Assembly: GCF_013167455.1 (NCBI RefSeq)
Contig: NZ_CP038328.1
Reading direction: 5' to 3' (one strand)
Source of the DNA: Escherichia coli O157:H7
GTDB lineage: Bacteria > Pseudomonadota > Gammaproteobacteria > Enterobacterales > Enterobacteriaceae
DNA: 64,000 nt
Made by a program: the position numbers and the translations under genes. Below the pieces are notes generated by a model that saw nothing but the letters and a program-made list of their open reading frames with translations, made no database searches and was not told where the DNA came from. Numbering within the stretch: position 1 is the first letter of the stretch; every line of letters begins with the position of its first letter. Positions 25,455-63,099 of the stretch are shown in pieces.

Positions 25455-25598
<144 letters not shown>

Positions 25599-25646: not shown

Positions 25647-27017
25647 ATGAAAAAATTAACCTGCTTTAAAGCCTATGATATTCGCGGGAAATTAGGCGAA
25701 GAACTGAATGAAGATATTGCCTGGCGCATTGGTCGTGCCTATGGCGAATTTCTCAAACCGAAAACCATTGTGTTAGGCGGTGATGCCCGTCTCACCAGCG
25801 AAACCTTAAAACTGGCGCTGGCAAAAGGTTTACAGGATGCGGGCGTTGACGTGCTGGATATTGGTATGTCCGGCACCGAAGAGATCTATTTCGCCACGTT
25901 CCATCTCGGCGTGGATGGCGGCATTGAAGTTACTGCCAGCCATAACCCGATGGATTACAACGGCATGAAACTGGTGCGCGAAGGGGCTCGCCCGATCAGC
26001 GGCGATACCGGACTGCGCGATGTCCAGCGTCTGGCAGAAGCCAACGACTTTCCTCCCGTTGATGAAACCAAACGCGGTCGCTATCAGCAAATCAATCTGC
26101 GTGACGCTTACGTTGATCACCTGTTCGGTTATATCAACGTCAAAAACCTTACGCCGCTCAAGCTGGTGATCAACTCCGGGAACGGCGCGGCGGGTCCGGT
26201 GGTGGACGCCATCGAAGCCCGCTTTAAAGCCCTCGGCGCACCGGTGGAATTGATCAAAGTGCACAACACGCCCGACGGCAATTTCCCCAACGGTATTCCT
26301 AACCCGCTGCTGCCGGAATGTCGCGACGACACCCGCAATGCGGTCATTAAACACGGCGCGGATATGGGCATTGCTTTTGATGGCGATTTTGACCGCTGTT
26401 TCCTGTTTGACGAAAAAGGGCAGTTTATCGAGGGCTACTACATTGTCGGTCTGCTGGCAGAAGCGTTCCTCGAAAAAAATCCCGGCGCGAAGATCATCCA
26501 CGATCCACGTCTCTCCTGGAATACCGTTGATGTGGTGACTGCCGCAGGCGGCACCCCGGTAATGTCGAAAACCGGACACGCCTTTATTAAAGAACGGATG
26601 CGCAAGGAAGACGCCATCTACGGTGGCGAAATGAGCGCCCACCATTACTTCCGTGATTTTGCTTACTGCGACAGCGGCATGATCCCGTGGCTGCTGGTCG
26701 CCGAACTGGTGTGCCTGAAAGGAAAGACGCTGGGCGAACTGGTGCGCGACCGGATGGCAGCGTTTCCGTCAAGCGGTGAGATCAACAGCAAACTGGCGCA
26801 ACCCGTTGAGGCGATTAACCGCGTGGAACAGCATTTTAGCCGTGAGGCGCTGGCGGTGGATCGCACCGATGGCATCAGCATGACCTTTGCCGACTGGCGC
26901 TTTAATCTGCGCTCCTCCAACACCGAACCGGTGGTGCGGTTGAATGTGGAATCACGCGGTGATGTGCCGCTGATGGAAGCGCGAACGCGAACTCTGCTGA
27001 CGTTGCTGAACGAGTAA
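25647..27017 (+). CDS. cpsG: Phosphomannomutase (colanic acid copy)
   Basis: [29 protein letters not shown]...; phosphohexomutase active site TASHNP. Confidence 0.93.
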
Positions 27018-48689: not shown

Positions 48690-49650
48690 AGGAGAACAAA
48701 ATGGAACTTAAAATAATTGAGACAATAGATTTTTATTATCCCTGTTTACGATATTATAGCCAAAGTTGTATCCTGCATCAGTCCTGCAATATTTCACGAG
48801 TGCTTTGTTAACTGAATACATGTCTGCCATTTTCCAGATGATAACGACGTCATCGCAATTGATGGTAAAACACTTCGGCACACTTATGACAAGAGTCGTC
48901 GCAGAGGAGTGGTTCATGTCATTAGTGCGTTTCAGCAATGCACAGTCTGGTCCTCGGATAGATCAAGACGGATGAGAAACCTAATGCGTTCACAGTTATT
49001 CATGAACTTTCTAAAATGATGGGTATTAAAGGAAAAATAATCATAACTGATGCGATGGCTTGCCAGAAAGATATTGCAGAGAAGATATAAAAACAGAGAT
49101 GTGATTATTTATTCGCTGTAAAAGGAAATAAGAGTCGGCTTAATAGAGTCTTTGAGGAGATATTTACGCTGAAAGAATTAAATAATCCAAAACATGACAG
49201 TTACGCAATTAGTGAAAAGAGGCACGGCAGAGACGATGTCCGTCTTCATATTGTTTGAGATGCTCCTGATGAGCTTATTGATTTCACGTTTGAATGGAAA
49301 GGGCTGCAGAATTTATGAATGGCAGTCCACTTTCTCTCAATAATAGCAGAGCAAAAGAAAGAATCCGAAATGACGATCAAATATTATATTAGATCTGCTG
49401 CTTTAACCGCAGAGAAGTTCGCCACAGTAAATCGAAATCACTGGCGCATGGAGAATAAGTTGCACAGTAGCCTGATGTGGTAATGAATGAAATCGACTAT
49501 AATATAAGAAGGCGAGTTGCATTCGAATGATTTTCTAGAATGCGGCACATCGCTATTAATATCTGACAATGATAATGTATTCAAGGCAGGATTATCATGT
49601 AAGATGCGAAAAGCAGTCATGGACAGAAACTTCCTAGCGTCAGGCATTGC
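48690..49650 (+). mobile_element. Degenerate H-repeat (ISAs1-family) transposase remnant
   Basis: Frame-hopping translation gives MELK..., [155 protein letters not shown]-repeat-protein blocks interrupted by multiple stops and frameshifts. Confidence 0.8.
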
Positions 49651-49712
49651 AGCGTGCGGGCTTTCATAATCTTGCATTGGTTTTGATAAGATATTTCTTT
49701 GGAGATGGGAAA

Positions 49713-52011: not shown

Positions 52012-52043
52012 GGCCCGGCGTATATTGTACCGGGCTTTTTTTT
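52012..52043 (+). terminator. Rho-independent terminator after gnd
   Basis: GCCCGGCG-tatattgta-CCGGGC stem-loop followed by TTTTTTTT. Confidence 0.75.
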
Positions 52044-52224
52044 GCCAATTATCTTATAGACTAAATATCACTGCTTAATATTAACTTAATAAATATCAGC
52101 TATTCTTATAAAGAAAATCTGAATTGTTTTTCGCTGCGTTGACCATCGAACAACGTAGCGTTAAAACTTTTAGCTCTTATCAGGATGTTAAAAACATCAT
52201 GATTCACAGTTAAGTTAATTCTGA

Positions 52225-53400
<1,176 letters not shown>

Positions 53401-53542
53401 CATCTTGTTATCAGGGCTATTTACGCCCTGATTGTCTTTTGTTACCTCCGCAATAATTCATTATTTTTATCACTTATCCTATAGCATTCACAGGGATTAT
53501 CGCTAAACTATGCGGACTTGGAAATTTCCGTCAGTTAGGGTA

Positions 53543-54523
53543 ATGATGAGAGTAGAAAATAATAATGTTTCTGGGCAAAACCATGACCCGGAACAGATTG
53601 ATTTGATTGATTTACTAGTGCAGTTGTGGCGTGGCAAGATGACAATCATCATTTCCGTCATTGTGGCTATTGCTCTGGCTATTGGTTATTTGGCAGTAGC
53701 GAAGGAGAAATGGACGTCAACAGCAATTATCACTCAGCCCGACGTGGGGCAAATTGCTGGCTATAACAATGCCATGAATGTTATCTATGGTCAGGCTGCA
53801 CCGAAAGTATCGGATTTGCAGGAGACGTTGATTGGTCGCTTCAGTTCTGCCTTCTCAGCATTAGCAGAAACGCTGGATAATCAGGAAGAACCAGAAAAAC
53901 TTACCATCGAACCTTCTGTTAAGAACCAGCAATTACCATTGACTGTTTCTTATGTTGGGCAAACTGCAGAGGGAGCACAAATGAAGTTGGCCCAATACAT
54001 TCAGCAAGTTGATGATAAAGTGAATCAAGAGCTAGAAAAGGATCTCAAAGACAACATTGCTCTGGGACGGAAAAACTTGCAGGACTCTTTAAGAACGCAG
54101 GAAGTAGTTGCGCAGGAGCAGAAAGAGCTGCGTATCCGTCAGATTCAGGAAGCGTTGCAGTATGCGAATCAGGCGCAGGTGGCAAAGCCACAGGTTCAGC
54201 AGACTGAAGATGTGACGCAAGATACGTTGTTCCTTTTGGGGAGCGAAGCGCTGGAGTCGATGATTAAGCATGAGGCGACCCGTCCGTTGGTGTTCTCACC
54301 AAACTACTATCAGACACGTCAAAACCTGTTGGATATTGAAAACTTAAAGGTTGATGATCTTGATATTCATGCTTACCGCTATGTAATGAAACCGACGTTA
54401 CCTATTCGTCGCGATAGTCCGAAAAAGGCAATCACCTTGATTCTGGCGGTGCTGCTGGGCGGCATGGTTGGCGCGGGGATTGTGCTGGGGCGTAACGCTC
54501 TGCGTAATTACAACGCGAAGTAA
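53543..54523 (+). CDS. wzzB: O-antigen chain-length determinant (polysaccharide co-polymerase)
   Basis: MRVENNNVSGQNHDPEQIDLIDLLVQLWRGKMTIII...; N- and C-terminal TM segments with a proline-rich C-terminal region. Confidence 0.9.
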   Translation: MMRVENNNVSGQNHDPEQIDLIDLLVQLWRGKMTIIISVIVAIALAIGYLAVAKEKWTSTAIITQPDVGQIAGYNNAMNVIYGQAAPKVSDLQETLIGRFSSAFSALAETLDNQEEPEKLTIEPSVKNQQLPLTVSYVGQTAEGAQMKLAQYIQQVDDKVNQELEKDLKDNIALGRKNLQDSLRTQEVVAQEQKELRIRQIQEALQYANQAQVAKPQVQQTEDVTQDTLFLLGSEALESMIKHEATRPLVFSPNYYQTRQNLLDIENLKVDDLDIHAYRYVMKPTLPIRRDSPKKAITLILAVLLGGMVGAGIVLGRNALRNYNAK

Positions 54524-54545
54524 TCTTTTCGGTTTTAAAGAAAAA

Positions 54546-54578
54546 GGGCAGGGTGGTGACACCTTGCCCGTTTTTTTT
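54546..54578. terminator. Bidirectional rho-independent terminator between convergent wzzB and hisI
   Basis: 10-bp stem GGGCAGGGTG/CACCTTGCCC with GTGA loop, flanked by an A-rich tract upstream and TTTTTTTT downstream; a second palindrome (GGATGCGA...TCGCATCC) follows at about 54582-54605. Confidence 0.7.
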
Positions 54579-54619
54579 GCCGGATGCGACAACAATATCG
54601 CATCCGCTTACCCCGCAAC

Positions 54620-55224
54620 TCACTGATGACGTTTACGCAGGTTCTCAATCACCGTTGTTAAATCCAGATCCTGATCCTGCAACAATACCAGCAGGTGATA
54701 CATCAAGTCAGACGCCTCGTTGGTCAGCTCAAAGCGGTCATGTACAGTCGCGGCCAGTGCGGTTTCCACGCCTTCTTCGCCCACTTTCTGCGCAATGCGT
54801 TTGGTGCCGCTGGCATACAGTTTGGCGGTGTAGGAGGTTTCCGGGTCGGCAGATTTGCGTTCGGCGAGCAATTGTTCCAGTTGATACAGGAACAGCCACT
54901 GGTGAGCGGTGTCGCCGAAGCAGCTGCTGGTGCCTTTGTGGCAGGTTGGTCCGATAGGATTCGCCAGTACCAGTAGCGTGTCGTTGTCGCAGTCCGGCGC
55001 AATATTTACTACGTTGAGGAAATTGCCCGACGTTTCGCCTTTGGTCCACAGTCGCTGTTTAGTGCGCGAGAAGAAGGTGACTTTGCCGCTTTCGATGGTT
55101 TTGTCTAAGGCTTCCGGGTTCATATAGCCCAGCATTAACACTTCGCCGGATACCGCGTGTTGCACAATCACCGGCATCAGTCCGTCGGTTTTTTCCCAGT
55201 CCAGTTCGCGACGTTGTTGTTCTG

Positions 55225-55231
<7 letters not shown>
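54620..55231 (-). CDS. hisI: Bifunctional phosphoribosyl-AMP cyclohydrolase / phosphoribosyl-ATP pyrophosphatase
   Basis: 203 aa [42 protein letters not shown]... Confidence 0.95.
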
Positions 55232-57309
<2,078 letters not shown>

Positions 57310-57310
<1 letters not shown>

Positions 57311-58376
57311 TACAGCACTCCTTTCGACGAGGGCAGGGTATCGCCTTCCACGCGGATGGCCTGGCGCAGGGTCCGACCAAAGGCTTTGAACAGGCTCTCT
57401 ACACGGTGATGATCGTTTTTACCTTTGGTTTTCAGGTGGAGCGTCACGCCCATGGTGTAAGAGAGCGAACGGAAGAAGTGCTCGATCATCTCGGTGCTGA
57501 GATCGCCCACGCGTTGGTAGGTAAACTCGGCTTTATATTCCAGGTGCGGGCGACCAGAGATATCCAGCGCGCAGCGGGCAAGGCATTCGTCCATCGGCAG
57601 CACAAAACCAAAGCGGCAAATACCGCGTTTATCGCCGAGGGCAATTTTTAACGCTTCGCCCAGCGCCAGGCCGGTATCTTCGACGGTGTGGTGATCGTCG
57701 ATATAGAGGTCGCCTTTGACGTTGATTTCCATACGGAAACCGCCGTGGGTGGCGATCTGATCCAGCATGTGATCAAAGAAGCCAACGCCGGTATTAATCT
57801 TGCTGCCACCTTCACGATCCAGCCACACCTGAACGTCAATCTGCGTCTCTTTGGTATTACGCACTACGTGAGCGTAACGGTCACGTCTGGTGAGTTGCTC
57901 GCCAATCATTGGCCAGTTCAGGGTTTCGCGGTCGTAGCGTAAACCATTAATGCCCATGTTTTCAGCGAGTTGAATATCGGTCGCGCGATCGCCAATCACA
58001 TAACTGTTGGCGCGATCCATCGCTTGCTCAGCGAGATAACGCTCCACCAGTTTTACTTTCGGTTTACGGCAGTCGCACTCATCGGCGGGCAGGTGCGGAC
58101 AAATCAGCACTTCATCAAACTGTACGCCTTGCGAGGTGAATATCTGCATCATCAGGTTGTGCGGGCCATCGAAATCCGCCTGCGGGAAACTTTGTGTTCC
58201 CAGACCATCCTGATTAGTGATCATCACCAGTTTGTAGCCCGCTTTTTGCAGCTTCAGCAGTTGCGGGATCACGCCCGGTTCAAAGGCGAGTTTGTCAAAA
58301 CGATCCACCTGAAAATCACTCGGCGGTTCGCTAATCAGGGTTCCATCGCGATCGATAAAAAGATACTTCTGACTCA

Positions 58377-58377
<1 letters not shown>
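57310..58377 (-). CDS. hisB: Bifunctional histidinol-phosphatase / imidazoleglycerol-phosphate dehydratase
   Basis: [60 protein letters not shown]... Confidence 0.95.
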
Positions 58378-60748
<2,371 letters not shown>

Positions 60749-60753
60749 GGCGA

Positions 60754-61653
60754 TCACTCCATCATCTTCTCAATCGGCAGGACCAGGATTGAACTGGCAC
60801 CCAGCGCTTTCAGTTTTTCCATCGTTTCCCAGAACAGGGTTTCGCTACTGACCATGTGCATCGCTACGCGCTGTTGATCACCCGCCAGCGGCAGAATGGT
60901 TGGGCGTTCGGCACCTGGCAGCAGGGCGATGACTTCATCCAGACGTTGGGTCGGTGCGTGCATCATGATGTATTTTGATTCGCGCGCCTGGATCACACCC
61001 TGAATACGGGTCAGCAGCTTGTCGATCAGTTGCTGTTTGGATTCTTCCATTTCGCCATCGCGTTGTATCAGGCAGGCTTTCGAGCGATAGATAACTTCGA
61101 CTTCGCGCAGGCCGTTTGCTTCCAGCGTGGCACCGGTGGAAACCAGATCGCAAATCGCATCCGCCAGTCCGGCACGCGGGGCGACTTCAACAGAACCGTT
61201 CAGTAAGCAGGATTTAAAAGAGATGCCTTTCTGGTCGAGATAACGCTTGAGCAGGTGAGGATAAGAGGTGGCGATACGTTTACCGTTTAAGGAGAGCGGG
61301 CCGTCCCAGGCATCATCAACCGGCGTTGCCAGCGAAAGACGGCAGCCGCCGAAATCCAGACGACGCAGGGTAAAGTAGCGTGGATCTTCACCCTGGGCGC
61401 GGCGGTTAAGCAGCTCTTCTTCCAGCACGTTTTCGCCGATAATCCCAAGATCTACCACGCCGTCCATTACCAGACCGGGAATGTCGTCGTCACGCACGCG
61501 CAGAATATCAATCGGCATGTTTTCTGCCATCGCGATCAGGCGCTGGGTGTGAAGATTGATTTTAATGCCACAGCGCGCCAGCAATTCGCGAGAGTCATCA
61601 CTTAAACGGCCGGATTTCTGCATAGCTATGCGTAAACGAGTGTTGTCTGTCAT
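60754..61653 (-). CDS. hisG: ATP phosphoribosyltransferase
   Basis: [65 protein letters not shown]... Confidence 0.95.
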
Positions 61654-61700
61654 TTTCTTATTCCTCTTTAAACCTGTCTGAACCGTTATCAACCGCGCAA

Positions 61701-61734
61701 TAAAAAAGCCCCCGGAAGGTGATCTTCCGGGGGC
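61701..61734 (-). terminator. his attenuator terminator hairpin
   Basis: Minus strand GCCCCCGGAAG-atcac-CTTCCGGGGGC followed by TTTTTT, between hisL and hisG. Confidence 0.85.
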
Positions 61735-61798
61735 TTTCTCATGCGTTCATGCACCACTGGAAGATCTGAATGTCTTCCAGCACACATCGCCTGAAAGA

Positions 61799-61849
61799 CT
61801 AGTCAGGATGATGGTGATGATGGTGCTGTTTAAATTGAACGCGTGTCAT
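61799..61849 (-). CDS. hisL: his operon leader peptide
   Basis: Minus-strand ATG ACA CGC GTT CAA TTT AAA CAC CAC CAT CAT CAC CAT CAT CCT GAC TAG = MTRVQFKHHHHHHHPD* with seven consecutive His codons. Confidence 0.95.
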   Translation of the reverse strand: MTRVQFKQHHHHHHPD

Positions 61850-62074
61850 AAAAGTCTCTGTGAATGTTTATTCAACTGATGTCTTTTAACCTAAACCACT
61901 TTCACGTTAGAAAGCAAGGGCTTTTTTATATATTTTATGGCGATGGATTTGTTTAATGAATGAGCGGGGAAAGGAGGGGGCTAAGAGTGACTAGGTTAAA
62001 AAAGTAATCGTGAAAATATGTCATTAAAACCCTCAAGAACATTGTGTTCTGTAACTAAAGTGGGCTTTGTTCCT

Positions 62075-62180
62075 GCCGGATGCGGCGTGAATGCCTTATC
62101 TGGTCTACAAATGTTGCCTAAATTCAATATATTGATGTTTTGTAGGACTAATAAGCGGAGCGCATCAGGCAATGGTATAT
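62075..62180. repeat. REP elements in the hisL-yeeZ intergenic region
   Basis: CCTGCCGGATGCGGCGTGAATGCCTTATCTGG ... GTAGGACTAATAAGCGGAGCGCATCAGGC. Confidence 0.65.
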
Positions 62181-62274
62181 TTGCTAACAGTTTCGATTTC
62201 ATTCATAGAATGAATTGTCAGTTTTGATACGCTAGCGTAGCCTTATAGATCTAAGGTGTATCAGGAGATAACGG

Positions 62275-63099
62275 ATGAAAAAGGTCGCAATTGTCGGGTT
62301 AGGGTGGTTAGGCATGCCGCTGGCGATGTCACTTTCAGCGCGAGGCTGGCAAGTCACCGGGAGTAAAACCACACAAGATGGTGTCGAAGCGGCCCGAATG
62401 AGTGGCATTGATAGCTATCTGCTTCGCATGGAGCCTGAGTTAGTTTGCGATTCTGACGATCTGGATGCCCTGATGGATGCCGATGCGCTGGTCATTACGC
62501 TTCCGGCCCGTCGTAGCGGCCCCGGCGATGAGTTCTATTTACAAGCGGTACAAGAGTTAGTGGATAGCGCGCTGGCCCATCGTATTCCCCGAATTATTTT
62601 TACCAGTTCAACGTCTGTCTATGGCGACGCGCAAGGCACGGTGAAAGAAACCACCCCGCGTAATCCGGTGACCAACAGTGGACGAGTATTAGAAGAACTC
62701 GAAGACTGGCTGCACAATTTACCCGGTACTTCGGTCGATATTCTGCGTCTTGCGGGCCTGGTCGGACCGGGGCGTCATCCCGGACGCTTCTTTGCCGGAA
62801 AAACCGCGCCTGATGGTGAACATGGTGTTAATTTAGTCCATTTAGAAGATGTTATTGGCGCTATCACTCTGTTGTTACAGGCACCTAAAGGCGGACACAT
62901 CTATAATATATGTGCGCCAGCTCACCCTGCGCGTAATGTTTTCTATCCGCAGATGGCCCGTTTACTGGGGCTGGAACCTCCGCAATTCAGAAATAGTCTG
63001 GACAGCGGCAAAGGTAAGATTATTGATGGCAGTCGGATTTGTAATGAACTGGGATTTGAATACCAGTATCCCGATCCGCTGGTAATGCCGCTGGAGTAA
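62275..63099 (+). CDS. yeeZ: NAD(P)-binding epimerase/dehydratase-family protein YeeZ
   Basis: 274 aa MKKVAIVGLGWLGMPLAMSLSARGWQVTGSKTTQDG...; Rossmann motif. Confidence 0.88.
   Translation: MKKVAIVGLGWLGMPLAMSLSARGWQVTGSKTTQDGVEAARMSGIDSYLLRMEPELVCDSDDLDALMDADALVITLPARRSGPGDEFYLQAVQELVDSALAHRIPRIIFTSSTSVYGDAQGTVKETTPRNPVTNSGRVLEELEDWLHNLPGTSVDILRLAGLVGPGRHPGRFFAGKTAPDGEHGVNLVHLEDVIGAITLLLQAPKGGHIYNICAPAHPARNVFYPQMARLLGLEPPQFRNSLDSGKGKIIDGSRICNELGFEYQYPDPLVMPLE

Follow-up and report, generated by a model that had tools for sequence, protein, structure and literature searches.

In the chromosome of E. coli K-12 (NC_000913), the gene order is yeeZ, yoeB, yefM, hisL, with the yefM-yoeB toxin–antitoxin (TA) operon (b2017/b4539) lying between yeeZ and the his leader. 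Iguchi et al. 2011 (PMC3158064) found neither yoeB nor yefM at the yeeZ-hisL position in O157 Sakai, included this spacer among those holding REPs, and remarked on the involvement of REPs in many indels of the region; the TA-free junction and its REPs are thus already published, and the polymorphism is an ordinary one. The main-text passages of Zhou 2010 (PMC2806823) describe an O-antigen recombination of 131 kb, his operon included, and ascribe the indels within the tract to differences between donor and recipient; these passages name neither yefM-yoeB nor an end point in yeeZ.

Variable TA content in E. coli has been reviewed by Fraikin et al. 2020 (PMC7167474), and two described sites resemble the one studied here. 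At folA-apaH, a chromosomal TA (ccdO157) likewise alternates with REP DNA in one intergenic site (Fraikin 2020, PMC7167474), but at that site it is O157:H7 that has the TA and K-12 that has the REPs, and the TA belongs to another family. At yafL-fhiA, the hicAB pair, mostly in B1 strains, occupies a site where others hold BIME DNA, and Ton-Hoang 2012 (PMC3333891) read this as a replacement; unlike hisL-yeeZ, that site also held a REP-associated transposase gene. Ramisetty and co-workers have described horizontally moving TA modules as a promoter plus two ORFs without a terminator. To these accounts we add the frequency of both hisL-yeeZ alleles in 5,426 genomes, the outgroup states, plasmid relatives of the TA, and a recombination end point in yeeZ.

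The stretch of DNA that we analysed (64,000 nucleotides, hereafter the window) comes from E. coli O157:H7; positions 61650-62400 are 100% identical to many O157:H7 chromosomes, and O157:H7 strain Z852 is colinear with the entire window. An earlier note on this sequence had reported that about 425 bp holding REP elements and the his promoter separate hisL from yeeZ, and had placed yefM-yoeB between them in K-12. This placement agrees with NC_000913, and the gene coordinates give a spacer of exactly 425 bp (61850-62274) that holds two REPs and, in the flank next to hisL, the his promoter region. The absence of yefM-yoeB was borne out by tblastn of the K-12 proteins against the 64-kb window, where neither YoeB (best E = 1.3) nor YefM (best E = 2.9) has a homologue. 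The O157 spacer likewise contains no overlapping Phd/YefM antitoxin ORF and no palindromic PyefM operator, consistent with the dissimilarity of the sequences that fill the site in the two strains. Compared with the K-12 operon, the window therefore carries an alternative allele at the same site and between the shared flanks, but without either gene and without the PyefM operator. The features of the junction are as follows.

60754-61653, minus strand: hisG, first structural gene of the his operon (ORF; annotated in an identical O157:H7 record)
61700-61823, minus strand: His leader/attenuator RNA (Rfam RF00514; score 131.6 bits, gathering score 49)
61799-61849, minus strand: hisL leader peptide MTRVQFKQHHHHHHPD (read directly, annotation, alignment)
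61850-61992 (143 bp), no strand: hisL-side flank common to both alleles, with the his promoter region; 98.6% identical to K-12
61993-62061 (about 69 bp), no strand: unique part of the O157 filler; no gene, no repeat family
62062-62196 (about 135 bp), no strand: BIME-1-like unit (inverted repeats, paralogue alignment, copy count)
62198-62274 (77 bp), no strand: yeeZ-side flank common to both alleles; 100% identical to K-12
62275-63099, plus strand: yeeZ, NAD-dependent epimerase/SDR family (ORF, Pfam PF01370, annotation)

Judging from the two flanks, the TA-free allele would leave his and yeeZ each with a conserved promoter of its own. On the hisL side, we take TAGGTT (61888-61893) and TTGCTT (61912-61917), both on the minus strand, to be the his -10 and -35 elements, an assignment made from the known his promoter; an A/T tract lies upstream of the -35. 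The promoter part of this flank is conserved across Enterobacteriaceae, and its distal ~50 bp are specific to Escherichia. The yeeZ-side flank contains a palindrome, TTCATTCATAGAATGAA (62198-62214), the candidate promoter TTGTCA-17-TAGCCT, which we predict serves yeeZ, and a ribosome-binding site; 75 loci from outside Escherichia conserve its core, ATGAATTGTCAG...GGCGTAGCCTTA. In a promoter/terminator scan of the junction, two promoter-like sites were returned (1.3 expected), the his promoter was missed, and no terminators were found. In an Rfam scan, only the His leader scored above threshold, and hisL overlaps this match; matches to naRNA4 and ES036 inside the BIME fell far under their gathering scores and were set aside. 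The O157 hisL differs from that of K-12 by H8Q (base 61826), leaving six consecutive His codons; K-12, E. albertii, and Salmonella have seven. This substitution lies inside the imported tract described below and could slightly shift the sensitivity of attenuation.

Between identical breakpoints, the O157 allele holds a 205-bp filler (~69 bp of unique DNA and one BIME-1-like REP pair), and the K-12 allele holds a 648-bp filler (promoter, yefM, and yoeB). The two fillers have no residual homology beyond the level of shuffled sequence, so the O157 filler cannot be the remainder of a TA deletion; judged from these alignments, the difference at hisL-yeeZ is a replacement polymorphism rather than a simple deletion. 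Two ORFs of 68 and 69 aa that cross the BIME were rejected as genes because they run through the REPs, are not conserved, and, in the case of the 69-aa ORF (62018-62227, plus strand), lose the start codon in E. albertii, where the ATG is ACG.

Several small symmetries mark the breakpoints. A perfect 10-nt inverted repeat pairs 61884-61893 (the his -10 region, TAGGTTAAAA, minus strand) with 61992-62001, placing the inverse copy of TAGGTTAAAA exactly where the allele-specific filler begins; about 0.1 such pairs are expected per 425 bp. At the left junction of the TA allele (about 6840-6862 of the K-12 locus) there is a perfect palindrome, GCTAAGAGGAC-T-GTCCTCTTAGC, one arm of which belongs to the shared flank and one to the TA filler; E. 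whittamii keeps part of this palindrome. The right end of the BIME-1-like unit coincides with the allele breakpoint, and the palindrome TTCATTCATAGAATGAA stands at the yeeZ-side breakpoint in both alleles, its right arm reaching into sequence that other genera conserve. This second palindrome could be a weak yoeB terminator in K-12 or a regulator site for yeeZ.

The repeat unit itself consists of a REP at 62074-62108, a 33-nt linker, and a shorter REP in inverse orientation at 62142-62171, putatively of the y and z types, respectively. A degenerate REP pattern matched three other REPs in the window and neither of the two in the spacer. No exact match to the IHF consensus WATCAANNNNTTR occurs in the spacer; the linker contains an IHF-like site, CATCAATATATTG (62125-62137, minus strand), with one mismatch to it. 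The linker, AAATTCAATAnATTG, is conserved with a genomic paralogue. The inverted repeats indicate a single unit at this locus, and each E. coli genome has 18-50 places that match the ~135-bp unit (filler positions 65-205), the best paralogue scoring E ~4e-22. From end to end, and across the linker, the unit aligns with the BIME that the K-12 lineage has between pitA and uspB. BIME-1/RIB (RIP) elements are described as a pair of y and z REPs with a long L linker that binds IHF (Ton-Hoang 2012, PMC3333891). The spacer unit is like them in having inverse REPs, a single copy, a long conserved linker, and a family dispersed at dozens per genome, and unlike them in that both of its REPs are degenerate and its IHF-like site, with one mismatch, is putative. 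In addition, RIB/BIME-1 elements are described from the 3′ ends of transcription units, whereas this one lies between the divergent his and yeeZ promoters. We infer that the REP pair is probably only a passive structural or insulator element.

To place these alleles in the species, 5,426 complete E. coli genomes were compared by matching at the DNA level. The yefM-yoeB DNA occurs in 4,218 of them (4,226 places in total, nearly always once per genome), and the remaining 1,208 have no match down to ~70% identity. The REP-bearing filler is complete in 1,196 genomes, a number close to that of the TA-free genomes, such that the two alleles together cover all but about a dozen. The unique ~69 bp matches only genomes that have the REP allele (934-1,196 of them), in one place each. 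Carriers of the REP allele include ~300 complete O157:H7 genomes, which are at least 99% identical over the filler, and ~900 non-O157 E. coli, among them the unrelated strains ATCC 11303, 1303, and M1/5. We therefore hold with considerable confidence that the 425-bp spacer is the TA-free allele of a common two-allele polymorphism at the Escherichia hisL-yeeZ junction, with the history proposed below.

To ask which allele is older, we examined yeeZ loci from one genome per species; these 80 loci do not include E. fergusonii, E. marmotae, and E. ruysiae chromosomes, which leaves few outgroups for judging the polarity. Each of the 75 loci from outside Escherichia that extend to hisG (from Citrobacter, Salmonella, Enterobacter, Klebsiella, Kluyvera, and other genera) has a compact spacer of ~165 bp with neither filler. 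Within Escherichia, three of the four sampled non-coli species have the REP allele. Their REP filler is 88% identical to that of O157 in E. albertii and 95% and 93% identical in two other species, in line with the divergence of hisG and yeeZ in the same species. The earlier note had regarded the REP elements as a plausible footprint of an indel; their presence in E. albertii and two other species at species-level divergence, and the unrelatedness of the 205-bp and 648-bp fillers in the alignment with the K-12 junction, instead identify the REP filler as an old alternative occupant of the site rather than a deletion scar.

The TA allele is found in E. whittamii, and so is not confined to E. coli, but between K-12 and E. 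whittamii the synonymous differences number 9/112 in yefM plus yoeB versus 89/418 in hisG plus yeeZ (Fisher p = 0.0009), making the TA genes about three-fold less diverged than their flanks, an estimate that depends on only 9 differences. Plasmid-borne yefM-yoeB of Salmonella, Citrobacter, and E. marmotae matches the K-12 filler at positions 77-644 with 82-86% identity; the Citrobacter relative sits on an IncF plasmid between traT and traD. This homology begins 64 bp upstream of yefM, ends at the stop codon of yoeB, and corresponds to a unit of the type described by Ramisetty and co-workers, a promoter and two ORFs without the terminator. A REP allele that has diverged with its hosts, next to a TA that is younger than its flanks and related to plasmid modules, points to the TA as the newcomer. 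We conclude, with moderate confidence and from sequence comparison, that the REP allele is probably the older Escherichia state and that the TA cassette displaced the REP filler.

The proposed history would begin with an Escherichia ancestor that gained the REP-bearing filler in the compact (~165 bp) spacer. A plasmid-type promoter-yefM-yoeB module would then have displaced this filler, as a single event, in a lineage that now makes up ~78% of E. coli, after which homologous recombination in the O-antigen-linked hot spot would have shuffled both alleles. The polarity could also run the other way, with yefM-yoeB ancestral and a REP segment that overwrote it once and spread by recombination, including into E. 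albertii. The TA allele is after all the majority one (78%) and is also present in E. whittamii, the Escherichia-specific left flank is common to both alleles, and REP/BIME elements are themselves mobile (Ton-Hoang 2012, PMC3333891). However, such a spread sits poorly with a REP filler that differs by ~12% between O157 and E. albertii, in line with the divergence of the species, with its occurrence in three of four sampled non-coli species, with a synonymous divergence about three-fold lower in the TA genes than in their flanks, and with plasmid relatives whose boundaries match those of the module; we consider this reversed order unlikely.

The window contains a second site of variable TA content, which the earlier note had paired with the first as a swap relative to K-12. 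This cassette lies between asmA and yegH.

8357-8975, minus strand: HigB-2-like TA cassette between asmA and yegH
8637-8975, minus strand: toxin of the Gp49/HigB-2 family (PF05973, E = 1e-30, 105.8 bits)
8357-8647 (ORF 8357-8665), minus strand: HTH_37 antitoxin (PF13744, E = 4e-22, 78.1 bits)

The cassette is real, as the two Pfam matches indicate, and is absent from K-12, where asmA-yegH holds an unrelated 273-bp spacer with one REP (3487-3759 of the K-12 locus). Its gene order (toxin first) and overlapping ORFs fit the class of HigB-2/Gp49 toxins with HTH antitoxins, a predicted assignment. In E. coli, the asmA-yegH spacer (window 8305-9049) comes in at least three lengths; it is a second TA-versus-REP alternation in the window, in which the O157/O55 allele has the TA. 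Relative to K-12, O157 does lack yefM-yoeB and does have an extra HigB-2-like cassette, but these differences do not amount to a swap: the two sites vary independently, with 1,196 of 5,426 genomes having the REP allele at hisL-yeeZ and 792 of 5,426 having the cassette. A single recombination exchanging both sites was discarded, given that O55:H7 CB9615 already has both the HigB-2-like cassette and yefM-yoeB. Because O55:H7 had both TAs, no swap took place, and the O157:H7 lineage only lost one TA.

The recurrence of REPs opposite TAs raises the idea that a REP-specific mechanism preferentially directs chromosomal TA cassettes to REP/BIME spacers, whether they land there or replace what is present. 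This idea is compatible with the proposed history and adds a mechanism to it, in which type II TAs would be gained and lost by hairpin-mediated or REP-transposase-assisted exchange. Both TA-variable sites in the window, yeeZ-hisL and asmA-yegH, have a REP in the TA-free allele, ccdO157 at folA-apaH alternates in the same way (Fraikin 2020, PMC7167474), and hicAB replaces tnpAREP and BIMEs at yafL-fhiA (Ton-Hoang 2012, PMC3333891). These four sites are anecdotes and not a test; REPs lie in many spacers and are themselves prone to indels, so their co-occurrence with TAs may be chance, and the TA junctions show no target-site duplication, REP remnant, or GTAG/CTAC signature. We regard preferential targeting of REP spacers as doubtful, and an exchange by either of these routes as equally so.

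To understand how O157:H7 came to have the TA-free allele, we compared the window with O55:H7 CB9615, the closest sequenced relative of the O157:H7 ancestor, in which yefM-yoeB is present at the site. Divergence between the two is 1.4% in the first 16 kb of the window and 3.5% on the his side of the junction (52037-61987, 23-50 SNPs per kb). The step down falls inside yeeZ.

62508-62670, inside yeeZ: last SNP cluster versus CB9615, six SNPs; the predicted his-proximal end of the recombination tract is just after 62670

Past 62670, there are only three SNPs in the next ~5.9 kb (~0.05%), which matches the O157/O55 backbone divergence of 0.06% given in the main-text passages of Zhou 2010 (PMC2806823). 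This pattern, 1.4-3.5% to about 62670 and backbone level thereafter, fits the 131-kb O55-to-O157 tract of the same passages. Since identity to O55:H7 is at backbone level from 62671 on, the window appears to contain one end of that tract, inside yeeZ, a new mapping made here by comparing two genomes. The hisL-yeeZ junction lies ~0.5 kb inside this end, and its his side, 3.5% diverged from O55:H7, is imported DNA. In the remainder of the window we note three further observations: dgcE (yegE, window 1480-4798) is annotated as frameshifted in O157:H7 Z852, and O55:H7 CB9615 has an intact copy; the O157 O-antigen cluster contains the remnant of an ISAs1-family transposase (window 48738-49669); and the colanic-acid gene cpsG (window 25650-27017) is flagged by RefSeq as partial (missing N-terminus), with a REP just upstream (25521-25556).

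The presence of the TA in CB9615, together with a SNP density that falls inside yeeZ, suggests that O157:H7 lost the TA through the recombination that switched the O-antigen. A yefM-yoeB-positive, O55:H7-like ancestor of O157:H7 would have imported the ~131-kb O157 O-antigen region, overwriting its own, and the TA would have been lost passively, the donor DNA having the TA-free allele and one crossover falling inside yeeZ just after 62670. The TA may instead have been gained within the O55:H7 lineage; this is conceivable because CB9615 is a modern strain and because the region has undergone multiple recombinations in both lineages, according to the main-text passages of Zhou 2010 (PMC2806823). 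A deletion in place, with the REPs as its scar, would follow from the earlier note's view of the REPs as a plausible footprint of the indel. It accounts for an O55:H7 with the TA and an O157:H7 without it, and indels associated with REPs are frequent near the O-antigen locus (Iguchi 2011, PMC3158064), but it is contradicted by a 205-bp filler dissimilar to the 648-bp TA filler, by the presence of this filler, 88-98% identical, in ~900 non-O157 E. coli as well as in E. albertii and two further Escherichia species, and by a his side that is imported DNA; we consider a local deletion very improbable. That the TA genes were simply missed, by assembly collapse or as a divergent, unrecognised homologue, is an explanation for which we found no support and which we judge nearly negligible, given a filler that agrees at 99% identity or better among more than 300 independently completed O157:H7 genomes, a tblastn of the window negative for YefM and YoeB, and a spacer that contains no conserved ORF.

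Taken alone, replacement at hisL-yeeZ carries little weight, as one more case of variable TA content in E. coli beside an O-antigen recombination hot spot. The recurring pairing of TA and REP alleles could merit a systematic test; if REP-linked exchange were true, it would provide a mechanism for TA mobility, which according to reviews is still unelucidated. For cells with the TA-free allele, the predicted consequence is the lack of the YoeB mRNA interferase and of the YefM repressor. These results call for caution in two respects. O157:H7 would lack YoeB through hitch-hiking with the O-antigen switch, with no evidence of selection on the TA itself, and K-12 should not be taken as the reference state at hisL-yeeZ, where the TA-free allele is probably the older one.
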